The notes under the pieces: model-generated
Told to the model about the DNA's origin: nothing
The model's database searches: none
Seen by the model: only the letters and a program-made list of their open reading frames with translations
Assembly: GCA_016699935.1 (NCBI GenBank)
Contig: CP064992.1
Location: forward strand, 930,001-962,000
Reading direction: 5' to 3'
DNA: 32,000 bases
DNA from: Candidatus Saccharimonadota bacterium
Lineage (GTDB): Bacteria; Patescibacteriota; Saccharimonadia; Saccharimonadales; UBA4665
In this document: positions 2,891-24,178 of the stretch, piece after piece
How the letters are laid out: each line of letters begins with the position of its first letter
Numbering within the stretch: position 1 is the first letter of the stretch
Program-made: the position numbers and the translations under genes

Positions 2891-5271
2891 TCAAGCACCA
2901 ATTGCCATGTACAGCTCACGCTGCAGTTCCAGATAGTCGCTTACTATTTCGTCAGCCGAGCCAAGGACTGAGGTAGCGTCACGCATAGTTTTGTATCGTA
3001 AACTCACGAGACTCGTGAGGTTCTGCATACTTAGCTCATTTTCGCCCTGTTTTTCATAAGTATCGAGGACAAACTTCACAAACTCACGCTCATTGTTGTC
3101 GAGTTGCTCCAGGTAATATTCGCGCACAATTCCGGCACGCTCGACGCGTGTCATTGTATCTTTGGCATAGGCAATGTAGCGTAGTACATCGTATACATCA
3201 CTTTCTTCTGCATCACAAAGCTGCTTAAGTGCTTGCAGTTTCTCCTCTTCAAAACCGCGCTCCGCCAAACCTTGCAGCAAAATTTCACGCGTGCGTGGAT
3301 CACACCACTGTTTACGCAAATCATCTTCGTCCTTAAAGAGCTCTGGTATTTGCCCAAACAATTTCTCCAAGAATTCATGTGGGCTCACGGCTCTCCCGTC
3401 CATATAGAATTTTGTATCGACTGAATATTTAATCTCGCGCTCCTTGCCGTCTCCTAGTCGAACAACCGTTTTTTGCTTCGGCTCTATAGGCACGTCAACA
3501 GCAACATCGCTACCGTCATATGCTGGCTCAGGCTCATCGGTCTCTATTTCGTCATCTTCCGGGTTACCTTGTACGACATCATCAACCACAATAGTCGCTG
3601 GCTCAGGCTCGACCACATCAGTGGTCTCAACTTCTTGCGGCTCGCCATCCCATTCGGGGTCCTCAAATTTAGTGTCGTTGCCATAAAAGTCTACAATCGT
3701 GAAATAATCTTTATCATCATATATGCGAGTACCACGCCCGACGATCTGCTTGAACTCTACCATACTACCAACGCCACGCATCAACACCACAAAACGGACA
3801 TTGCGGGCGTCTACGCCAGTACTGAGTTTACGACTTGTCGTGACTATGGTTGGCACTTGCTTTTCGTTATCACGAAATTCTTCAAGGTAGCTATCGCCAA
3901 GGGCACCTTCTGTAGAAGTTATACGAACACAATAATTACGACCGTCGCCCAGCGTTCCGGCTGGTTTATGTTTATTGATCGCATCCCGCATCATCGCAGC
4001 GTGCTTTTCATCATTACAAAACACGATTGTTTTTGATTTGGATTGATTTGTTCCAGCAGTATCTCCGCCATGCGCTCTTCGCGCTCCGGCAGATAAATCG
4101 CCTTGTTAAAATCACTCAGCGTATATTCGCGCGCCTCGTCCACTTCGCCACTTTCCACAAAATCTTGCGGGTTAAACACGTAGCGGTCCATAGTGGTAGT
4201 GATGCGCTTGACCTTAAAAGGTGTCAAAAATCCGTCTTCAATGCCTTGTCTGAGTGAGTAGGTGTAAACAGGATTACCAAAGTATTTGTAGGTGTCGATG
4301 TTGTCATCACGTTTCGGAGTAGCGGTCAGCCCTAGGTGGGTTGCGCCGTTAAAATGGTCGAGCACTGCCCGCCAGTTTCCTTCATTGCTTGCGCCGCCAC
4401 GGTGACACTCGTCTATGATGATAAGGTCAAAGTAGTCACTTGGGTAATCTCTAAAATACGGATTATCGACGGACCCCCCAGTCATCGCCTGGTAGATACT
4501 AAAGAACATACTACCATTTGTCGGAATCTTGCCCTTCTTTCGCACAGCTTCACCATTTATCCGTACCGCCATGTCGCCAAATGGCTCAAAGTCGCCCATA
4601 GCTTGCTCGACGAGTATATTACGATCAGCCAAGAACAATATGCGTGGCCGGCGTTCATCACCGCGCTTATTCCAACGCGCCTGGTATAGTTTCCATGCTA
4701 TTTGAAATGCTATGGTCGTTTTGCCCGTACCAGTTGCCAGCGTCAAAAGTACTCTGTTTTCATTACCAGAAATCGCCTTTACGGCTGCGTTTATGGCGTT
4801 TTCTTGGTAGTAGCGTGGTCGGTGTTTGATGATCTCGTACGGCTCAGTCAACGCGCGGTACTGCGCGTCATTAACATCGCTATACGTCATTACAAATAGG
4901 TCATCTGGGCTATTATAGCCGCTCACTTCTTCGCCACGGCCAGTCTTCATATCAAAGCAATAGATTCCGTGACCATTCGTACTATACACATAGCGTATCC
5001 CAAGGGTCGCCGCGTAGTCTTTCACTTGTTCTAGCCCGTCAGTAATTTCTTTGTCTTCGGCCTTCGCTTCGACTATGGCAAGTTTCTGATTTTTATAAAC
5101 AAGTACATAGTCGGCTTTTTTAGTTTTTCCGCGTTGCCCACTGCCTATCAGCCGGCCATCGGTAAATACATACTCCGACAATACAAGAGAGCCAGTAGTG
5201 ACATTTTGCCCCCAACCGCACTGGGTCAATTTTGGGTCGATCAGCTCCCGCCGGGTAGTCGCTTCGTTCAT
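2891..5271 (-). CDS. hsdR: type I restriction enzyme R subunit (HsdR), split by 1-nt indel at T5 run 4030-4034
   Basis: ORFs 3991..5271 and 2891..4024. N-terminal nuclease region (LAIVEAKAEDK), helicase motif I (TLATGTGKT), motif II (IIDECHR), then TIVFCNDEKHA and TSRKLSTGVDARNV. Restoring A6 gives NPNQK-TIVFC in one frame. Confidence 0.9.
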
Positions 5272-5287
5272 TACTACTTATTTTACA
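5199..5287. repeat. 89-bp direct repeat, copy A (functional hsdR start + upstream 16 nt)
   Basis: Aligns base for base with 6961-7049. There are 5 mismatches in the first 25 nt and the last 64 nt are identical. Confidence 0.9.
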
Positions 5288-5290
5288 GCA

Positions 5291-5695
5291 TTACAGAGAA
5301 AAGATGACACCGAGATCAACGAACTGATCTTTGATAACTTTCTTCCACTTTGCAGTTATATTTGGCCTGTCTATGTGTTCGCCTTCGGTAAACACGAATA
5401 GAACTCTCACAAGGTGTAGGTTTTCGTTTATATGCAAGATACACCTATTGCCAGACTTAGACGGACCGACTTTTGTACCTTCCACCGCGAAATCCAATTT
5501 TACCAACTTGTGTTCACCTACGCTGTTGATTAAATCGGCCTTCTTGATCCGTAGTAGCGCGTCAATACGCTTGCACATATCGTCGATGTCATCGCGAGTT
5601 TTGTCCCAATTGGATTTGTGTTTCTTTGCGAACGCCTTGATATAGTAACGCTCTGAAAAAGAATCGAATTCTACAGCGTAGTTCGAGGCTTCCAT
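5291..5695 (-). CDS. putative toxin partner of the Panacea-type antitoxin (RelE/ParE-like fold suspected)
   Basis: Intact 134-aa ORF that overlaps the upstream antitoxin by 25 nt. The motif KVGPSKSGNRCILHINENLHLVRVLFVF resembles the beta-core of RelE/ParE-type toxins. Confidence 0.55.
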   Translation of the reverse strand: MEASNYAVEFDSFSERYYIKAFAKKHKSNWDKTRDDIDDMCKRIDALLRIKKADLINSVGEHKLVKLDFAVEGTKVGPSKSGNRCILHINENLHLVRVLFVFTEGEHIDRPNITAKWKKVIKDQFVDLGVIFSL

Positions 5696-6396
5696 ATATG
5701 GTCCGGTTCTTCCTGGGTAATAAGTCCGTAAGGGATTGCCTCACCATCCCTACAGATCTGCCACGGCAATTGGTTATGAGTAAAGTCTACGATTGCCTCT
5801 GTATTGTAGCCTTTCCATACTTTACCAATCTTATCGATCATCCGCTTTTCATCTTTAGTAAGCTCACTGGCAGGTACTTCGCCATTTTCTGCTAAAGAGA
5901 GAAGCATAGCCTTGCCTTTATACTCTGGTGGGTTGATTATACCTTCTTCTTCTAGCTCATCAAGTGCGCGAAAATACACGTCCGCCACGGGCCCACGCGG
6001 TAACTTACGATAGGTCATACCGGACATCGGTGCTAGGTGATCGTAGTACCAGGTAAAATCAGCTAGGTAGACGAGCTTTGCAAGTTTCGTCTTTGTTATC
6101 TTCCCATCAGCATCCGCGCCGGCTTTAAGAGCGTTGAGAATAATTTGCTTATATTTTTTGACTGCTTCAAGCGTATTTGACAAAGTCGAAATCCCATCCG
6201 GTGCCCCAATCAAATCGCCCAATTCAACGCGCAACATAGCTGCCATTTTTTCTGCTTGCGATACAGTGATTTCTTTTTTGCCAGCCTCAATAAGGGCATA
6301 AGTCTGACGACTCATACCTAGTACCTCGGCTACTTGCTCCATCGTTAGCCCACGCGCTAGACGAGCACTTTCGAGATTCTTACCCACATTACTCAT
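5671..6396 (-). CDS. XRE-HTH + DUF4065 (Panacea domain) antitoxin
   Basis: Intact 241-aa ORF. N-terminal HTH (LTMEQVAEVLGMSRQTYALIEAGKKEITVSQAEKMAAML). DUF4065-like core (TKLAKLVYLADFTWYYDHLAPMSGMTYRKLPRGPV ... FTHNQLPW). Confidence 0.8.
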   Translation of the reverse strand: MSNVGKNLESARLARGLTMEQVAEVLGMSRQTYALIEAGKKEITVSQAEKMAAMLRVELGDLIGAPDGISTLSNTLEAVKKYKQIILNALKAGADADGKITKTKLAKLVYLADFTWYYDHLAPMSGMTYRKLPRGPVADVYFRALDELEEEGIINPPEYKGKAMLLSLAENGEVPASELTKDEKRMIDKIGKVWKGYNTEAIVDFTHNQLPWQICRDGEAIPYGLITQEEPDHIWKPRTTL

Positions 6397-6426
6397 AGTG
6401 TTGTCCTTCGTTTGTTATTTGTTTTT

Positions 6427-6455
6427 AGTTTAGCGTACTTAACAGTATATGTCAA
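6427..6455 (-). promoter_or_regulatory. sigma70-like promoter for the TA operon
   Basis: On the minus strand: TTGACA (6455-6450), 17-nt spacer, TAAACT (6432-6427), about 30 nt upstream of ATG 6396. Confidence 0.45.
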
Positions 6456-6458
6456 GAA

Positions 6459-6480
6459 ATACAACATAGTCAACTTGTAT
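6459..6480. promoter_or_regulatory. inverted repeat ATACAA-N10-TTGTAT, candidate operator for the HTH antitoxin
   Basis: Perfect 6-bp arms immediately upstream of the -35 element. Confidence 0.3.
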
Positions 6481-6669
6481 TTTTAACATCCGTCTGTTAG
6501 GATAGAGGTAATTCGGAGAGGAATCCGGAGGGTAAAAATAGGAAAAGCGCCTATCCAGCGCTTCCTTATACAAGAATGTTCCTCAACAAATTGTATAGCT
6601 CCTATCTTACCACATATAGAATTAAGTGGTAATTCCGCCGCAAACCGAAAGAAAGGAGCTACAACAACT

Positions 6670-6900
6670 ATGGCAGGCAAACAAGTCCACACTACCTACA
6701 GCAAGCAAGCTGGCAACTGGCGCAATGTTTCCGCTGGCTCAAGCCGACCGGCAAAGGTGTACGACACCAAGGTGCAGGCACAAACCGCTGGCCGCCAACA
6801 GGCGATCAACAACAAAACCGAGCATGTCGTTCACAATCAGAACGGCCAGATTGCTTCACGCAACAGCTACGGTGGCGATCCGCACCCACCAAAGGGCTAG
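6670..6900 (+). CDS. DUF2188 domain protein
   Basis: Intact 76-aa ORF with AGGAG upstream. The C-terminus NGQIASRNSYGGDPHPPKG matches the family hallmark ...SYGnDPfPPKG. Confidence 0.7.
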   Translation: MAGKQVHTTYSKQAGNWRNVSAGSSRPAKVYDTKVQAQTAGRQQAINNKTEHVVHNQNGQIASRNSYGGDPHPPKG

Positions 6901-8212
6901 GTCACATCACCGCCAAAAGAGGCACTCTCTATGAGGCCTCTTTGGTTTGCTAACTCATCGTGACATTCTAGCCCCAACCGCATTCGGTCAATTTTGGGTC
7001 GATCAGCTCCCGCCGGGTAGTCGCTTCGTTCATTACTACTTATTTTACACTCACTTTGAGAAAACGCTTGCGTCAGCAAGGATTGCTTTAGTGTGCGAAG
7101 CATACTAACTTTTGACTGATATTTTGCAATCAACGAAGATAACTTCGCAGAAATATCATCAAGTTTCTTTATGATCTCATCTTGATCTGATATCGATGGT
7201 AGCGTAAATGCATACGCAAACAAGTGAGGCCTATTCACTTTCGGCATACCGGCTCTATCTGAACCAGAAATGGCATATTGAGTAAAGTCATTTGATAATA
7301 GTAGATAATATAAGTAGTCTCGCCTTACCTCATTGGTGGGAAGAAGCGGGTAAATATCCGCGCTACACAAACCAGAAAAATCTGGTCGGACAACCTTTTT
7401 GAGGTATGGACGTATTTTGCTATACAAGACCATTGTTCCATCAAAAGGAAACTTACTAGAAATTAGCTTCTCTTCTTTCGCCATTTTTAAGTTGATTAGC
7501 TGCCCTGTTTCAGGCTCAATGTTCGCACCACCAACATGCAGGCACTCGTTATATGGCTCATATCGAGGATCAATTAATTTTGAGTCTATGGTGCAAACAT
7601 CTCCTAGACATTGTTCTTCACCTATTACATTTCTGAGAATCTCAGTGTATAACCGATAGTACAGAGTCCGAGTATATTGAATATTCTTCTCCGTCAACTC
7701 AATAGCCCGATCAATCTTCTCAAAAGCTGCGTCCAGCCGCTCTACCACCCGCCGTTGCTCTTCGAGCGATGGGAGATATATATCAAGTGATTGTAGTTTT
7801 GTTATTGTTAATGTGTCTACGGTCGTTCCGTTACTCAAGCTGCTCGAAAAATGCTGCTGATTTAAACCATTGGTTTACGTAGCCACTCGGTCAACATCAC
7901 TAGTTTTTTTCAGCCAAAGGACACTCGCGTCTTTAAAATAAAACTTCTCATTTGCCTGTACGATATAGTATTACCTATTGTCCCTATAGCGGTGATCATG
8001 ATGTCGCCTTCTGTTGGGACCCCGTTCTTATGCGAAAGATCATTGTATAAATCTTCAGAAATGTATAGTTCATTGTTTGCATTACCCGTTTTTGATAGCC
8101 TCGTAATTTCACGCCCACGATAAAACGGTATGCCCGAGCTTTTCCACTGTGATTTCAACACTCTTCTGCTAGAGCTAATGGTAAATGTGTCGCCAAGCTT
8201 CACAGTTTTCAT
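6897..8212 (-). CDS. hsdS: type I R-M specificity subunit (HsdS), two TRDs, at least 2 frameshifts; the last ~50 codons read through the hsdR remnant and are probably not native
   Basis: ORFs 7910..8212 and 6897..7838. Conserved spacer helices LPSLEEQRRVVERLDAAFEKIDRAIEL and LPSISDQDEIIKKLDDISAKLSSLIAKYQSKVSMLRTLKQSLLTQAF. Stops in the other two frames cluster at 7040-7055, just before the hsdR-remnant ATG. Confidence 0.85.
6913..6945 (+). terminator. weak hairpin downstream of the DUF2188 gene
   Basis: CCAAAAGAGGC-12 nt-GCCTCTTTGG (one bulged A) followed by TTTGC. Confidence 0.3.
6961..7049. repeat. 89-bp direct repeat, copy B (hsdR 5' remnant next to hsdS)
   Basis: See copy A. The repeat period is 1762 bp. 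Confidence 0.9.
6968..7033 (-). pseudogene. 21-codon remnant of the hsdR 5' end
   Basis: ATG 7033 reads MNEATTRRELIDPKLTECGWG then TAG. The true HsdR N-terminus is MNEATTRRELIDPKLTQCGWGQ. Confidence 0.85.
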
Positions 8213-9271
8213 TCGGAGTAAACTCCCTTTAATATTTCAAGCCTCGCTAATAGCCCGTCATACGTCATAATAATGTTTTTTCATCGCCTTACGAAAAAAC
8301 GAGAATGAGCGTCTTTTTGTCTTCATCCATTGATGAAGTATTGCGATCGCCAATCAACAAGATGCCCATGGGATCAAGACGATTTAGGTCAGAAAAGTCC
8401 GCCCGAGCATTGTCTGAAAGTCGTTAACGGCAACACGTATTTGATTCTCCATCTGGACAAGACTTCCGGTTAGCTGAGCAGACATGGAATAGCAGATATT
8501 CTCTCTTCCTTCATCGTCTCCTCTATATTGTCCGCCAACAAGCGGTGTTGTAGGAGGCTTTATTTCAACAACAGCAAAACTACCATTCGCACCATTTAAG
8601 AACAGCTGGTCTGTCGCTACGCCACCTTGGCCGTTTCTCCCACGCGTGTTCTTGCCGCCTACATATGTCTCGCCTTGCATATAGTAGAGCGGGAAATGAA
8701 AGATCTGTTGGATAATCCAGGAATTATTATCAAAATAATCCTGCCAAAAGGATTCAACCCTGTTTCCGAGGTTTTCCCGTATGAAATCTATTGCTGTCTG
8801 AAGCTTTGCAGTTGCAACAGCATTTTCTATGGAACGAAAATTATTAGCCTCAAGCTCTCTTAGTTTTCCGATGATCAGATCACGATTTGCACCATCGCTA
8901 ATTTGCAGAAGTATTCCTTCAGCATTGTTATCTGCGAGAGAAAAAGTTGTATCACCATATCGGTGTCCCCACTGCTCTAGCAAGGCCTTGATTCTTTCGA
9001 GGTTAGAGAATAATGTCGCCATGTCTTCACCACTGAGATTCAGTTCGTATGCCTCATCTCGATGGAGGGTTGTAATTGACCTGCCCTCGAATTCTTCCCA
9101 TGTCTCATTTCTACCCTTTTTTTCAAAGCGAAAGCCCCCGCGTAAGTGATTATCGGACGCATCAACCCATATTGGATAAAAAAATAATCTGGTTGAGCCG
9201 GTTTCATGTAGGGGTATCGGGCTAACATCCATAGTCCCTGCTGAAGTCGAATGAGTATTTATCTCAGGCAT
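8209..9271 (-). CDS. DUF4263 / Shedu (SduA)-like PD-(D/E)xK nuclease with unassigned N-terminal domain; C-terminal 60 codons reached through three homopolymer frameshifts, two traced to T6 8276-8281 and A6 8294-8299
   Basis: ORF 8384..9271. Motifs SFWQDYFDNNSWIIQQIF ... GGVATDQLFLNGANGSFAVVEIKPP ... SAQLTGSLVQMENQ. The continuation reads DPMGILLIGDRNT...IIIMTYDGLLARLE. Stop TGA overlaps the hsdS ATG (ATGA at 8209-8212). Confidence 0.55.
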
Positions 9272-9285
9272 ACTGAACCTTTAGC

Positions 9286-9848
9286 CTATTCTTGCTCATT
9301 TTTTTCTGCTTTGATTGTATTTAACACTTGCGCAAGCTTGTATGCACTAATATTCAAGATATCCATAATCGCAGCATTAGTGTGACCTTCACTCTTAAGC
9401 TGTTTGACGAGGTCTTTCCTTTTTTCATGCAAATTATCCTGAAATTCATAAAATTTCTGAGCTTCATACCATCCCAGGCTTTCATTCCAAATATTTGGAA
9501 TGTAGAAAGTGATTGTACGCGTGTTTCCTGCCTCATAATGATAACCAAGCAAGATCGTGATAATATCCAACGCATTCACAAATAGCTTTCTGTAGTCATC
9601 CTCGCTCTTTGCGGCACCAAGTTCTTTCTCTATACGCTCAAGGTAGAGTCTACATGCGCTCTTGAAATGACTATCTGCAATCAAATCATCGATATCTTGC
9701 CTGAGTTTTTTGACCAAAGTCTTCACATCTTTTTGAAATATTTTGGATTTTGGTATGCAGAAGCAAACCCATAATACTTGTCCCCAAAAACGTTTCGCAT
9801 CAACATTTCGGTACGCATTCCGTCGCTATAGTATCTAGATTCAGTCAT
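9286..9848 (-). CDS. hypothetical ~187-aa protein with C-terminal HTH-like segment; frameshift at T5 run 9730-9734
   Basis: GGAG lies 8 nt upstream of ATG 9848 (MTESRYYSDGMRTEML...YFKK). That piece joins ORF 9286..9726 if the A5 run is read as A6. The C-terminus is GHTNAAIMDILNISAYKLAQVLN. I recognise no family. Confidence 0.4.
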
Positions 9849-9870: not shown

Positions 9871-11332
9871 TTATTGTTCATAGGCTAAGGTCCTCAGTAT
9901 TTCAGCAACTTCTTTATCGATTTGCTTGATATCCTCTAAAATATCCTCTGGTGTTTTTAGTTCTTCGGCTTCTGGCGCGAAGGGGTTTTTGACACCTAGG
10001 TCGAAGGTGGTTTGGTCGAGGTCTTCGGCTTTGACCGTCCATGAGTTTTCACTGGTTTCTCGGGTTTTGAACTTTACCAGGAAATCGTCGAAGTCGTGAA
10101 TGTTCAGCGGATTGGTTTTACCGAGGTTGCGACTAGGGTTGAGTTGGTAGTACCAAATATCCCGCGTTGGTTCGCCTTTGCGGAAAAACAGCACCACGGT
10201 TTTGACGCCGGTCGAGCCAGTCGCGCTAAACACACCGCCTGGCAGGTCAAGGATGGTATGTAGGTTAAAGCCTTGCAGCAGCTCTTTACGAATCTTGCCC
10301 GTCGCGCCATTTGGCTCATTGGTCAGGAATGTGTTTTTATAACTATCGCCGCTTCACCGCCAGTACGAAGATTCTTCATGAAGTGCTGTAGAAATAGGTT
10401 TGCAGTTTCACGAGTCGGGATTTTGAAGTTGCGCTGAACTTCAGGGCGCTCATTGCCACCGAATGGTGGATTTGCCAGTATATAATCAAACCGATCTTTT
10501 CCTGAATGTCGCGCGTGTCTTCATTGAGCGTGTTAGCATGCACCATGTTTGGCGATTCTATGCCGTGCAAAATCATATTCATCGTGCCCAGTAGGTATGG
10601 CTCTGGCTTTTTATTCTTGGCAAAGAACGTACGCTCTTTTAGAAAAGACAGTTCGTTCGCCATTTTCCTGGCTGCGTAGGTAGGCATAACTTTCGGTTAA
10701 AAACCCTGCCGATCCTGCTGCGCCGTCATAGATAGTTTTGCCCAGTTTTGGCTGCACCGCCTGAACCATAGCCTGTATAAGTGGTCGCGGCGTATAAAAC
10801 TCACCGCTGCGCCCTGCTCCACCCATAAGCTTCAAACGATCTTCATATAATGCAGATAACTGGTCAAGCTCATCCTGAGTCTGAAATTGAAGATTGTCGA
10901 TGATATCTATCACTTCCCGGAGGTTGCGCCCGCTCTGAATCTTATTTGTGATTTCACCAAATATTTCGCCGATTTTGTAGGTCAGCGTTTTGGGGTCATT
11001 TTCGGCATTTTTGAACGAGCGAAGGTATGGGAAAAGCTGGTGATTCACAAAGCCCGTCAGATCATCGCCTGTCATTTGCGCAGATATATCGGGTGAACCA
11101 TCTGCTTTCTTTGGTGCCGCCCATATGTCCCACTGGTGTTCGGTCTTAAACAACGGCTGGTACGCAATCTGGTGCAGTGTCGCTTCGTCCTTGCGCACCT
11201 CTTCAAGGTCGTCAAGATATTTCAAAAAAGAATCCATGACATCTGTGCCATGTAGTCATTCGCACCATTTGTCCCCGCATCCTCAAACAGGATATTGTCT
11301 ATGCGTTTAAATTCAGCTCTAATATCAGCCAA
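9871..11332 (-). CDS. hsdM: type I R-M DNA methyltransferase subunit (HsdM), at least 3 frameshifts
   Basis: Pieces 10611..11237, 10376..10687 and 9871..10233/10104..10319. The N-terminal HsdM domain (MSWILF|LKYLDD) is restored by adding one T at the run 11224-11229. SAM motif GEFYTPRPL...IYDGAAGSAGFL. Catalytic NPPFG is read as ANPPFGGNE in the shifted frame near 10450. Candidate TTG start at 11332 after AAGGGGG. Confidence 0.9.
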
Positions 11333-11507
11333 GAGGACCCCCTTCTCTGTTCTCAGTATACCCTCTCTGCCCCTGTTTTCTACGCTCTACTCGCTTGACT
11401 CCATTCTTTGGCGGCGTTCGCCCATGGTCTCGCCTTCGTATGACCAGTAGGCAGTACCAGAGACAACATTACTATAGCCGAGTACTTGTTGTGCAGCGGT
11501 GGAATGA

Positions 11508-11640
11508 GAGGACAGTCCTGTAACAGGTGAAGAAACTCATTATTTCGTTTGGGATGGGGTGAAAGATAGGGGTGGGTTTTACCGCGTTTGGTTTTGGTGG
11601 CTGGGACGCCCTGCTCCGTTGCTGCGACATACTATGTAGA
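11508..11640 (+). repeat. G-run repeat, copy C2 (left arm + core + right arm)
   Basis: GAGGACAGTCCTGTAACAGGTGAAGAAA...CGTTTGGGATGGGGTGAAAGATAGGGGTGGGTTTTACCGCGTTTGG...GGCTGGGACGCCCTGC. Confidence 0.85.
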
Positions 11641-19444: not shown

Positions 19445-19613
19445 GAGGCTCAGGTAATGACAGTCCTCTTACAGATGATTAAACTCAAGAATACGTTTGG
19501 GATGGGGTAAAAGATAGGGGTGGGTTTAACCGCATTTTTCTAATATTGTCTGCTGGGTCGGCTGCGCCTCTTTCATAAAACCATGCTCGTAGTAAGCTCC
19601 TGCTCGTGGTTTT
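19445..19613 (+). repeat. G-run repeat, copy C4 (left arm + core + long right arm)
   Basis: ...ATGACAGTCCTCTTACAGATGATTAAACTCAAGAATACGTTTGGGATGGGGTAAAAGATAGGGGTGGGTTTAACCGCATTT...CTGCTGGGTCGGCTGCGCCTCTT...CATGCTCG. Confidence 0.85.
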
Positions 19614-19789: not shown

Positions 19790-21749
19790 TCAATAACCAG
19801 TGTCTCTTGATTGTCCAACTAGCTCTTCTATTCCAATAGATTTGAAGTAATTAAATGTAGAGTCATAAAACTCTTGTTTCCTCGTTGCATCAGGGGATAA
19901 TTACCGTTCGGCAAGAAAATAATCATACCTTGTCTAGCCCTTGTTAAGAGCACGATAAGCATTTTTGCTTCTTGTTGATTTGATATGTTATTTTGCCATA
20001 TTATGCCTTTGAGCTGGTACTTTTTGAATTAAAATATTGCCAATCAGCTACATTAAAACGCATGTCAGCGTCCCAGCAAACTAGTGAATAATCAAGCTCT
20101 AACCCTGGCATACAAACTCCGAGGCTGCATCCTCTAAGAAATATGAGCTTTTGTTGTTTTCTTTTTCGCCTAAGAAATAGTGGACTTCGTTAATACCCTT
20201 ATTGCTATCTATGGCAAATGGTATCAGTCTTTGCGCTCTACTGGTGGCTAGCATTCCTGGACGCTCTGTACCTTTTTGTTTGTTTTCTTATCCAATCTTT
20301 AGCAATTTTTAGATCGCGAGTTATTTTTATTGGATATGCGTCTTCTAGCTCTTATAGATATTAGCCGCAGAGGCGTCGATATCTAGCAGCGCTTTTACAA
20401 AAATTAGACAATTTTCAGCTCTAAATGAACGCATGGAAGTCGCTAGATGGAGTTCGTGATATTTTTGTGCATTATTTGGCACATTCGAAACATTATATTC
20501 AGAATCGACTAAGTTCGGCGATATTGCAATTTGCCAGTCCGCCGGGACAGCATCAACCCATGCACTAATGCCAGCTTCGCCTTTTTTTTGAGCTCTTGTC
20601 CACCGCCAACAAGGCAGACTATACACGCCCAATCTTTGTGTCTATCCAGGGTATGAATTAAAAACCAGATTCAGATTCGCCATGAACCCACTGCCTTTTC
20701 TTTCTATTCATCCAATTTGTGATAGTATTACCATCCCAGGCTCTCTGAGCTTCATCAAAGATTGCCACATGTTCGCTGGGTGGATTTTCGTCATTAATGT
20801 ACTCATCGCGATAGTGGTGAACTATTTGTATAAACGATTTAACTTTATTTCTGGCATAACCTATCCGAATACCATTTTTGTCCTTCTCGTCTCTCGCCAG
20901 CGCTTCAGTCAGTACGTTTACAAGTGGCCCGTTGCCAGACAATAGTACGGCATGATCTTCTGAATTTGAGTCTCTTTTTGGGTTGCTATATTTAATCCAA
21001 CAAGAGTTTTCCGGCTCCAGGAACGCCTGTAACAAAAATAATTGTCTTTTTGTTGTTTTGCATTTGCAGTCATCAATTATTTCATTTATTTTCTTGCACG
21101 TTGTAGTTATGTTGTCACCTGCCTCGCTTCGAGTGATGTCTTCAACGCTGTGGCCTGAATACAATTCTCTTGCTGCTTCGATTATTGTCGGAGTCGGTTT
21201 GTACGGTGACTCTTCCCATCCTTCAGCTCCGTTACCGGTCAAATATTCAATAGATCCCACATAATCTTTTAAATGAATACTGCCCAAACAGTCAGCGCCT
21301 TCAATATTTCGTGGCTCACCCCTATATTCTGATACTACTAATGCCGGGAATATATCGGCTTTATGTGAACCTAAATGAAAATTTTTTAGCTCAAGCATAT
21401 AGTCAATTACTTGGTCTATGTCTTTAGCTATAAATTTATTTTGTCCAATTTTAAATTCTAATAAAACAATGTGCGGACTATCAGAATGTATTAACAAAAT
21501 TACGTCTATTCTCCTCCCCATACGAGGAATAACAAATTCTAAAAAAATAGTGGCATTATCAATATCGCATAGTTGGTCTTTTAGGATTTCAATTTCGGAA
21601 CGCCACGTTTCAAATTGTGGTTGCTCGACATTAAATCCATCGCGAATACTGCCCTGTGATAATTGGCCAATAATAGAATCATTGTTTTGTTGAAGAAAAT
21701 CAGCTACTGATGATTTGTACCAACTTGCATTTAAGAGCCTTGTGGCCAC
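19790..21749 (-). CDS. DUF2075-type protein (N-terminal PD-ExK-like nuclease module + P-loop ATPase/helicase-like domain), many frameshifts in the C-terminal two thirds
   Basis: ORF 20658..21749 has [25 protein letters not shown] and [16 protein letters not shown] 20345..20632 and shifted fragments down to 19790 continue it ([52 protein letters not shown]). The true start may be ATG 21761 (MSKK) if the A5 run is A6. Confidence 0.65.
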
Positions 21750-21826: not shown

Positions 21827-21965
21827 GAGGACAGTTCTCTAACACATTAAGAAAATGTGAATACGTTTGGGATGGGGAGAAAGACAGGGGTGGGTTTAAC
21901 CGCATTTGGCAAGTTTCGGCTGCTGGGACGGCTACGCCTCTTCCGCTGCGGCATGCTCGTTAACC
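21827..21965 (+). repeat. G-run repeat, copy C5 (left arm + core + right arm)
   Basis: GAGGACAGTTCTCTAACACATTAAGAAAATGTGAATACGTTTGGGATGGGGAGAAAGACAGGGGTGGGTTTAACCGCATTTGG...GCTGCTGGGACGGCTACGCCTCTT...CATGCTCG. Confidence 0.85.
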
Positions 21966-22557: not shown

Positions 22558-22650
22558 ATATCTCTTCGATTATCTCACAGAATATATGAATAATCCTTAG
22601 CAAATTCGGCGACTGGCATTATCGGTTTCAATTCCACTCTGGGTATACAA

Positions 22651-22682
22651 AAAGTCAGAACCATTTTCACAGTTCTGACTTT
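22651..22682 (-). terminator. bidirectional hairpin terminator (inside ~90-bp repeat 22615-22703)
   Basis: AAAGTCAGAAC-10 nt-GTTCTGACTTT with T-runs on both strands. The same hairpin and flanks recur at 24010-24099. Confidence 0.65.
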
Positions 22683-22782
22683 GTCTTTTACGGCTTGGCT
22701 CACAACGATAAAGGCAGTTATAGGCATGATTAAGCAAGACATTGCTTATGAAATGTAGGAATTATAGTAATTATCCTAATTT

Positions 22783-23967: not shown

Positions 23968-24047
23968 TCTTATAAAATAACTCAATTTATTTGTAGATAG
24001 CAAGCATATGCATAATCGTTCGGTTTCAATTCTATCTTTGTTATACA

Positions 24048-24078
24048 AAAGTCAGAACCAAAATTCAGTTCTGACTTT
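24048..24078 (-). terminator. hairpin terminator, second copy of the 22651-22682 element
   Basis: AAAGTCAGAAC-9 nt-GTTCTGACTTT. The flanks GCATAATCG..GGTTTCAATTC and GCTTGGCTC are shared with the first copy. Confidence 0.6.
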
Positions 24079-24178
24079 ATCTGCTCCAGCTTGGCTCCCC
24101 TAGTAGACGCATTGCGAACTAAGCACTACTCACCCATCATCAAAATGGCTAATGAATTTAAGCTTTGTTTCGACTCTC

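Follow-up and report, generated by a model that had tools for sequence, protein, structure and literature searches.

A duplicated hsdR start borders a toxin-antitoxin cassette in a type I restriction-modification locus of Saccharibacteria: a candidate recombination scar

Between hsdS and hsdR of a type I restriction-modification (R-M) locus from a member of the Saccharibacteria (TM7), a three-gene cassette made of a toxin-antitoxin (TA) pair and a DUF2188 gene is bordered on both sides by a copy of the hsdR start. The locus lies in a 32,000-nt stretch of contig CP064992.1 (hereafter the window), to which positions refer unless a compared locus, designated by an L number, is named. We propose, with about an even chance of being right, that the repeat is a recombination scar: the cassette would have entered together with an hsdR start by recombination at the conserved 5′ end of this gene, with later homogenisation of the proximal 65 nt.

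A 90-nt repeat of the hsdR start flanks the cassette

A repeat search of the window returned a single family, a direct repeat of 90 nt at 5198-5287 (copy A) and 6960-7049 (copy B), with 94% identity and a start-to-start spacing of 1762. Its significance was evaluated by self-BLAST of the window (E = 6.6e-34) and by comparing the Smith-Waterman score with that of 60 shuffles (z = 47). A preliminary description of this DNA had given the repeat as 89 bp at 5199-5287 and 6961-7049; the repeat is real but one base longer. Read on the minus strand, each copy contains 16 nt of upstream sequence (TGTAAAATAAGTAGTA), the hsdR ATG and 74 nt of coding sequence, in agreement with that description. Copy A continues into hsdR from its ATG at 5271. 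Copy B, read from its ATG at 7033, gives MNEATTRRELIDPKLTECGWG followed by TAG, which confirms that it is a dead stub. When stub B is compared with the hsdR alleles of relatives, homology extends 3 nt beyond the 90, to 6957/6958, which brings it to 93 nt.

The five mismatches between the copies, all substitutions, lie in the ATG-distal 25 nt, as described earlier, and the identical tract covers the ATG-proximal 65 nt. By our own arithmetic, the probability of such a clustering at either end is about 0.003 ((25/90)^5 x 2). Between orthologous hsdR alleles, 5-10 of the first 49 coding nt are different, so that an identical tract of 65 nt calls for homogenisation. The distal part of stub B, on the other hand, resembles an ordinary orthologous allele, with 25/29 matches to L002.

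The insert between the copies measures 1672 nt (5288-6959) and not 1673 bp as first stated; the TA pair and the opposite-strand DUF2188 gene that it was said to hold are both there. No inverted repeats were found in 4000-8500, none flank the insert, and no transposase or recombinase was detected in the insert or among 10 larger open reading frames (ORFs) tested elsewhere in the window. These absences exclude a target-site duplication left by a transposon or insertion sequence, an explanation that is refuted for practical purposes. Direct repeats of target sequence do flank the insert, but the two copies differ at five clustered positions and 90 nt is far above the usual target duplications, so the earlier argument that the repeat is too long for a transposase stands. 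Transposon target duplications are usually 2-14 bp. Two other candidates were dropped: a diversity-generating retroelement, since the mismatches show no adenine specificity and a reverse transcriptase is absent, and an hsdS shufflon, since the repeats are direct and located in hsdR.

Stubs of hsdR recur beside unrelated cargo

We screened 85 related loci with an hsdR start, together with the window, for a second, upstream copy of the first 120 nt of hsdR. Three outliers were obtained, with z = 47 for the window, 36 for L020 and 27 for L022; every other locus stayed below 5. In L020, a Methylophilaceae metagenome-assembled genome (MAG), the order is hsdS, Fic, stub, a 204-aa gene with an AbiEii-like gene, and hsdR; the stub runs from the ATG to +62 and is identical at 61/62 positions (copies at 6403-6464 and 8001-8062). 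In L022, a Chitinophagales MAG, a stub from the ATG to +65 is followed by a 131-aa unknown ORF and then by hsdR (copies at 2978-3042 and 3487-3551), with mismatches clustered distally (1 in the first 46 nt, 6 in the next 12). In addition, a tblastn search of plasmids with the hsdR N-terminus identified an unannotated stub of 31 codons (93 nt), then TAG, at 7001-7093 of a Pseudomonas savastanoi plasmid (L174). This stub is located between an XRE/DUF4411 pair and a 'stability determinant' with a RelE/ParE toxin, in a record without hsdR. Beyond it, the 31-aa N-terminal query retrieved no orphan stubs from plasmids.

The four cases come from four phyla, with unrelated cargo and stub lengths of 62-93 nt. 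Every stub begins with the ATG or slightly upstream of it and extends a little way past the conserved G-W-G codons. L016 offers a comparison for L020: there, Fic is directly followed by hsdR, and the two loci are identical at 99/100 positions upstream of the ATG and 89% identical over the next 1.49 kb. This drop of identity at the ATG points to a recombination breakpoint at the hsdR start. The L020 sequence beyond stub position +62 gave no signal of resemblance to the resident (L016) allele.

The preliminary description had proposed to look for other copies of this TA module flanked by hsdR 5′ fragments. The homologous modules of L161-165 are without a clear stub, and the stubs that we found stand beside other cassettes (L020, L022 and L174). 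These three loci lend support to the earlier view that the event was guided by homology or that the cassette brought along an hsdR 5′ arm. Repeats were sought in L003, L013, L017, L019, L084, L085, L117, L128, L129 and L131 with negative results, and sensitive alignment with shuffles gave nothing significant for a stub in L003, L162 or L165. Marginal stub matches in L036 and L044 were rejected as chance, one of them lying inside the hsdS coding sequence.

The recurrence also bears on the possibility of an assembly artefact, either a chimeric consensus of two strains, one empty and one module-bearing, or a long-read mis-join, which we regard as highly improbable. The window does come from a single 1.23-Mb contig of an uncultured organism, whose population may be heterogeneous, and the assembly shows many 1-nt deletions in A/T homopolymers. 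However, the mismatches between copies A and B are substitutions and not the indels typical of this assembly, the stub-module junction has no sequence overlap that could mis-join, and single long reads can span 90-nt repeats 1.7 kb apart. Moreover, the same architecture is observed in independent short-read assemblies (L020 and L022) and in a finished plasmid (L174).

The hsdS-hsdR site is empty or variously occupied in relatives

In the closest relatives, L001, L002 and L171/172, the site is empty, with the hsdS stop 4 nt before the hsdR ATG; the comparison with related genomes advised in the preliminary description thus finds hsdS running straight into hsdR. The corresponding identities are 92-93% aa for hsdR in L001/L002 and 76-77% aa for hsdS in L001 and L171/172. 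L003 (hsdR 91%) has at the same site a TA pair that is homologous but strongly diverged (40% and 31% aa). In L161-164 the order is hsdS-DUF2188-antitoxin-toxin-hsdR, colinear with window positions 6899-2909 (4 kb) at 73-75% nt identity. No stub is present in L161-164, where the DUF2188 terminator lies within 45 nt of the hsdS stop. L165 contains the TA pair without DUF2188. In L165, L003 and L017, homologous TA pairs are directly upstream of hsdR. In L017 (Campbellbacteria), a 67-aa Cys-rich ORF without family assignment (6536-6739) takes the position of DUF2188, on the opposite strand and upstream of the TA pair. The sequence next to this ORF (L017 6419-6510) may be a decayed hsdR stub; the match is significant only in a small search space (0/500 in 200 nt, z = 2.6 in 3 kb), so that it counts as no more than possible.

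The junction from the toxin stop to hsdR is conserved. The window (CTG TAA TGC TGTAAAATAAGTAGTA ATG) and L165 (CTG TAA TGT TGTATAATAAGTACAA ATG) have in common TAA-TG[CT]-TGTA[AT]AATAAGTA-ATG, and the TGTAAAATAA core before the ATG is common to the window junction, L003 and L162. Module and hsdR start would therefore already have been neighbours before the window's stub arose, and this linkage appears older than the stub event. Hence, the proposal that the module was spliced into the S-R junction is retained in so far as the site is occupied here and empty in the closest relatives; the entry de novo of a free cassette is unlikely. Likewise, the notion of a module arriving alone is not borne out, given the colinear DUF2188-TA-hsdR block in L161-164 and the junction shared with L165.

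The 16 nt upstream of hsdR resemble a -10 box, with TATAAT in L004-L010 and L165. In empty sites, the -10-like element overlaps the last hsdS codons and stop (GTA GAA TAG). Insertions at this place must therefore duplicate the element to keep both genes working. Such an arrangement would imply an hsdR leader that is very short or absent. More generally, a -10-like box (TATAAT, TAAAAT or TAGAAT) was observed 8-14 nt before the hsdR ATG in L001-L010, L162, L165 and the window (5272-5287).

Taken on sequence comparison, the site behaves like a minimal mobile element (MME) or a site of homology-facilitated illegitimate recombination (HFIR): it may be empty or filled with a different TA pair, the same module, or a TA pair without DUF2188, between conserved flanks.

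Origin of the repeat

In the scenario that we prefer, a DUF2188 gene divergent from an Xre-HTH (helix-turn-helix)/Panacea antitoxin and a RelE-fold toxin habitually sit directly before an EcoAI-family hsdR in candidate phyla radiation (CPR) bacteria. In this lineage or its donor, a segment with the module and the hsdR promoter and start would have entered a locus of the 'empty' type, through recombination anchored in the highly conserved 5′ sequence of hsdR. The earlier hsdR start (-10 box, ATG and ~25-31 codons) would have been left beside hsdS as a dead stub, the incoming copy now heading hsdR. Homogenisation of the first 65 nt would have followed, for which gene conversion with copy A as donor and copy B as recipient is the simplest route; the same conversion would have brought in the extra T at 7049, through which the hsdS stop is lost. 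In the last 25-28 nt, the divergence of two alleles would remain, together with decay (TAG). Since hsdR homology lies on both sides of the cargo, the stub-cassette-hsdR-start unit could thereafter spread by ordinary homologous recombination, for instance after natural transformation. The stub and TA pair of L174, in a record without hsdR, fit an arm that travels with the cassette.

Several points weigh against this scenario. No near-isogenic genome of the window's species was found, the protein P0210 occurring only in the source genome, and the closest sequences from the hsdR search are at 85-93% aa (best relative, 93% aa and 79% nt); the succession of events is thus not directly visible. A stub is not required, since in L161-165 the block is present and spreads without one. 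Gene conversion is a second step that the identical 65 nt would demand, and it would have to stop exactly at the homology edge. In addition, the direction of replacement between L016 and L020 is not readable from the sequences, and clear stubs are rare (3/86 chromosomal loci and 1/23 plasmid records). The start and end common to the stubs could instead reflect a specific mechanism. Finally, the R-M genes of the window may be pseudogenes, their activity being uncertain.

A one-step duplicative insertion in this lineage is an unlikely origin: a template switch during replication or repair, similar to microhomology-mediated break-induced replication (MMBIR), or another illegitimate event would have copied the module from another place into the hsdR start. 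Re-entry ~90-110 nt upstream of the exit point would make the duplication, the distal mismatches being due to error-prone synthesis or later decay. The identity of the proximal 65 nt, including the 16 non-coding nt, is as expected from one template, no recombinase or transposase is present, and the closest TA relatives (L081, L166-170) are in non-hsd contexts, which indicates that the module does move. Against this, the window shares its toxin-stop-to-hsdR junction with L165, L003 and L162, which the new arrival of a free module would not reproduce. The mismatches are at one end only (P ~0.003), in a part that is like an orthologous allele (25/29 to L002), and the stubs of L020 and L022 begin at the ATG, where different alleles become similar.

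We also find it rather doubtful that a circular cassette of 1762 bp (module plus one repeat) integrated at the hsdR start, through a single RecA crossover (Campbell-type) or with the help of a recombinase supplied in trans. In that case the two repeats would resemble attL and attR sites, and excision followed by renewed integration could occur. Such an event classically restores the gene start and leaves the insert between direct repeats of the target, and the P. savastanoi plasmid, with its stub and TA pair but no hsdR, looks as if the arm travels. A precedent exists in the pneumococcal tvr locus, where repeat-guided circles carry a TA pair (PMC6265443). However, neither the insert nor the larger ORFs tested in the window encode a recombinase, although one acting in trans could lie outside it. 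A single crossover between diverged arms would place mismatches on both sides and not leave an identical tract of 65 nt. Moreover, the same block occurs without repeats in L161-165, and a single dedicated recombinase is unlikely to account for four cases that come from four phyla and differ in cargo.

As a tentative extension of the recombination-scar scenario, hsdR stubs could be portable homology arms, forming recombinase-free 'knock-in' units that place TA or abortive-infection cassettes before related hsdR genes across phyla. Both hsdS and hsdR would stay intact, and hosts would include Saccharibacteria, Betaproteobacteria, Bacteroidota and a Pseudomonas plasmid. The end of the stubs after the G-W-G codons would correspond to the edge of usable homology or to a recombination hotspot.

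A conserved three-gene module with a RelE-fold toxin

The antitoxin contains a SocA_Panacea domain (PF13274, E = 3.5e-14) and an HTH_3 domain (E = 1.1e-13) according to Pfam. The DUF2188 protein matches PF09954 (E = 1.1e-14) and, across residues 1-76, the PDC-S16 profile (E = 2e-23). The bicistronic antitoxin-toxin pair is kept in L161-170 and in most of 80 metagenome loci; where the toxin match is missing, the contig usually ends. A DUF2188 gene lies divergently upstream of a homologous pair in 14 metagenome loci, L081 included, and also accompanies the module in L161-L164. Judged from this gene order, DUF2188 is part of the module, and its earlier treatment as a separate passenger is not borne out. 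The antitoxin, DUF2188 and hsdS ORFs of the window were found on no other contig by exact-protein look-up. A possible phage origin of the module was also considered and not retained, with only a single weak viral contig found.

L081 is the closest module copy (antitoxin 93%, toxin 84%, DUF2188 65%) and stands between unrelated genes in a non-hsd context. Its homology with the window spans from the hairpin after DUF2188 to the toxin stop codon and thereby defines the edges of the module. The divergent intergenic region has a central 160 nt that is ~92% conserved between the window, L081 and L162, above the coding parts; the intergenic regions of more distant modules are unrelated. On its minus strand this core contains a terminator-like hairpin (6543-6565); the ribosome-binding site of DUF2188 is paired in a helix of the plus strand. 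Folding is moderately better than that of shuffles on both strands (z = -2.5 and -2.9; three distinct sequences). The core may thus be a regulatory leader or a small RNA. For the TA pair, the TTGACA/TAAACT promoter of the preliminary description corresponds to a promoter-like site with 17-nt spacing on the minus strand at 6455-6427.

The 134-aa toxin has 89 homologues, of which the named ones are all from CPR bacteria. Neither the toxin (E up to 1) nor 19 of its relatives match a Pfam family, and a toxin profile run against PDB sequences reached HigB-2 at E = 0.34, which is suggestive only. An AlphaFold (AF2) model calculated with 35 homologues has a pLDDT of 92.5 and a pTM of 0.86. When it was compared with the PDB by Foldseek, almost all of the top ~40 matches were toxins of the RelE/HigB/YoeB/ParE superfamily, the best one being 1wmi_A (E = 4.6e-4, probability 1.00, TM on target 0.66). 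Given this confident prediction and these matches, the protein is assigned, on its predicted structure, to the RelE/ParE-superfamily fold. Its sequence family appears undescribed, the toxin clusters of the PanAT study (PMC8832971) not being part of the comparison.

Direct repeats were also observed around homologous TA modules outside hsd loci. In L102, 63 nt from the 3′ end of a neighbouring gene are repeated (331-393 and 2544-2606), L087 has three hairpin-like elements of ~100 nt each (47-147, 2474-2571 and 3647-3747), and L094 contains perfect 44-nt repeats (5694-5737 and 6842-6885) with a truncated toxin.

State of the restriction-modification genes

The locus is a type I R-M system of the EcoAI/FtnUII (type IB-like) family, as its homologues are named. 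The genes are ordered hsdM, a 146-aa unknown, Shedu SduA, hsdS, stub B, DUF2188 (opposite strand), antitoxin, toxin and hsdR. HsdS with two Methylase_S target-recognition domains and HsdM (N6_Mtase) are encoded upstream of hsdR, and both are split. Gene hsdR is itself read as two ORFs, 3991-5271 and 2891-4024, because one nucleotide is missing from an A-run near 4034. Copy A therefore heads hsdR, as stated in the preliminary description, but the gene is full length only if this homopolymer frameshift is a sequencing error.

Compared with L002, the frameshifts of hsdM (11228, 10500 and 10338) and hsdR (4034) are all 1-nt deletions in A/T runs, a pattern typical of long-read errors. In hsdS, three frame changes that fall within 150 nt are not located at long runs. 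Overall, the pattern looks like a mix of likely assembly errors and possible real decay.

The hsdS frame runs through the stub to 6897, which gives an ORF of 313 aa (6897-7838) also found in the public annotation (P0210). The claim that hsdS has no stop before 6897 is thus correct for the sequence as assembled, but it depends on one extra T at 7049 in an indel-prone assembly. This T is common to copy A and to the hsdR upstream region of L003, L162 and L165; the hsdS ends of relatives lack it. Were the A4 run of TGTAAAATAAG in reality A5, hsdS would end at a TAG 2 nt before the stub ATG. Read-through into the stub is considered probable because A4 also occurs in this motif in the short-read contigs L003 and L162; loss of the stop is not certain biology, owing to the indel problem of the assembly.

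The hsdM-hsdS gap was observed to be a second variable slot of the operon, where relatives hold other cargo: ORFs of 370 and 446 aa in L002, a 663-aa HATPase protein and a 326-aa ORF in L161, and Fic in L171. Downstream of hsdR, a second HTH-Panacea gene at 952-1786 contains two frameshifts and is syntenic with L002.

Relation to known systems

That type I R-M operons can harbour additional genes is long established, with PrrC, the rlo genes, tvrAT, and PIN and Fic proteins as examples. To our knowledge, the route by which such genes enter without mobility genes is mostly unexplained. In PrrC of EcoprrI and the Campylobacter 'restriction-linked ORFs' (rlo), a toxic or abortive-infection gene lies between hsdS and hsdR of a type I operon. 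As in these loci, the window has a toxic gene in the S-R gap, with a role presumed to be coupled to restriction. However, PrrC is an anticodon nuclease checked by the R-M enzyme, whereas the toxin described here has its own Panacea antitoxin and promoter. We know of no duplicated hsdR start in PrrC or rlo loci.

MMEs of Neisseria are cassettes exchanged by homologous recombination in conserved flanking genes, with TA and R-M systems as typical cargo. The window site is similar in having recombinase-free cassettes at a fixed position between conserved genes, where strains carry different cargo or none. It differs in that part of one flank is duplicated, MMEs being without duplication of a flanking gene.

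In the pneumococcal tvr locus (SpnIV), the tvrAT (phd-doc) TA pair is associated with excision and reintegration at direct repeats, with circular intermediates (PMC6265443). In both systems direct repeats reshape a locus with a TA pair between hsdM and hsdR. Unlike tvr, which has the tyrosine recombinase TvrR and shuffles hsdS halves, the window has no recombinase, its repeats are of the hsdR start and hsdS is not shuffled. Effector-immunity displacement in type VI secretion systems (T6SS) and 'orphan' arrays of Rhs and contact-dependent inhibition (CDI) systems involve recombination anchored in the conserved part of a gene with an illegitimate far end (PMC5361080). Here too there are a conserved anchor, an adjoining new cassette and a fragment of the earlier copy left as an orphan, natural transformation being presumed. 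In the T6SS/Rhs case, the anchor is the effector 5′ body with orphans downstream, whereas here it is the hsdR 5′ end with a stub of 62-93 nt upstream.

Concerning the module itself, antitoxins with a Panacea domain (DUF4065) are paired with many toxin families in PanAT systems (PMC8832971). The window follows this widely conserved pairing, with a Panacea antitoxin (here fused to an Xre HTH) and an overlapping small toxin gene, but its toxin family has no Pfam model and a predicted RelE-like fold. DUF2188/PDC-S16 is a small protein for which a HicB-like fold has been suggested and which is tied to defence loci and to divergent HTH regulators (bioRxiv 10.1101/2022.04.27.489752; PMC13621843). The small gene of the window is likewise divergent from an HTH gene in a defence context, its HTH partner being the Panacea antitoxin and not a CapH/CapP pair.

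The Xre HTH probably autoregulates the divergent promoters, the toxin is probably an mRNA endonuclease, and the Panacea antitoxin would hold the RelE-fold toxin. The module could then act as an addiction system, as an abortive-infection back-up coupled to restriction, like PrrC in EcoprrI, or as both. That it lies directly before hsdR in several lineages of the CPR suggests that it is co-transcribed with this gene, makes the locus addictive or, like PrrC, serves as a back-up once restriction is blocked.

The presence of TA genes inside type I loci and the TA class were already known. What is new, as far as the literature searched shows, is the recurrence of an hsdR-start stub as a mark of cassette entry. 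A dead 62-93-nt copy of the hsdR start beside a small cassette is a searchable signature of an insertion route, and the scar suggests that the conserved 5′ end of hsdR serves as a landing pad. Classical mobile elements are scarce in Saccharibacteria, for which natural transformability is presumed. If true, such a landing pad would explain the growth of defence islands around restriction genes in, for example, Saccharibacteria, and would offer a simple design for targeted insertion in such organisms. The comparison also defines a conserved CPR three-gene module of DUF2188, Panacea antitoxin and a new family of toxins with a predicted RelE fold.

Features of the locus and other elements of the window

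Table 1. Features of the R-M locus and its cassette, in window coordinates.
Feature	Position	Strand	Description
hsdR, EcoAI/FtnUII family	2891..5271	-	HSDR_N, ResIII, Helicase_C, EcoEI_R_C (Pfam, PADLOC)
Repeat copy A	5198..5287	-	16 nt upstream (-10-like TAAAAT), ATG 5271 and first 24 hsdR codons
Toxin gene, 134 aa	5291-5695	-	no Pfam family; predicted RelE/HigB/ParE-superfamily fold
Antitoxin gene, 241 aa	5671-6396	-	Xre-type HTH and Panacea (DUF4065/SocA); 25-nt overlap with toxin gene
TA-operon promoter-like sites	6427..6473	-	TTGACA-17-TAAACT (6455-6427) and TTGACT-18-TATACT; in conserved divergent intergenic region
Module intergenic core	6477..6639		~92% conserved with L081, L162
DUF2188 gene, 76 aa	6670-6900	+	divergent from TA operon; full-length match to PADLOC candidate PDC-S16
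Hairpin 3′ of DUF2188	6916..6943		AAAGAGGC...GCCTCTTT; left module edge by homology to L081, L162
Stub-to-module junction			GGGGCTAGAATGTCACGATGAGTTAGCAAACC, also written GTCACGAT/GAGTTAGC
Repeat copy B, dead hsdR-start stub adjoining hsdS	6957..7049	-	ATG 7033, TAG after codon 21
hsdS-to-stub junction			CAAAGTGAGTGTAAAATAAGTAGTAATG
hsdS (Methylase_S)	6897..8212	-	several frame changes at 7830-7960; stop lost via extra T at 7049
Cargo between hsdM and hsdS	8384..9726	-	Shedu SduA 8384-9271 (shorter than profile) and 146-aa unknown 9286-9726
hsdM (N6_Mtase, HsdM_N)	9871..11347	-	1-nt deletions in A/T runs near 11228, 10500, 10338

Outside the locus, an intergenic element of ~80-114 nt with the core ACGTTTGGGATGGGGTGAAAGATAGGGGTGGGTTTAACCGCATTT is present in three copies, at 11511-11589, 19459-19572 and 21830-21942. 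One copy lies just upstream of hsdM, and the element has no Rfam match. An ORF at 20658-21749 partially matches the profile of a Schlafen/DUF2075-like helicase family and may be another truncated defence-type gene. Finally, a terminator hairpin (GTCAGAAC...GTTCTGAC then TTTTTG) is repeated at 22622-22701 and 24020-24097, in the intergenic regions flanking a 421-aa ORF, and both copies have the downstream motif GAATTGAAACCGA in common.

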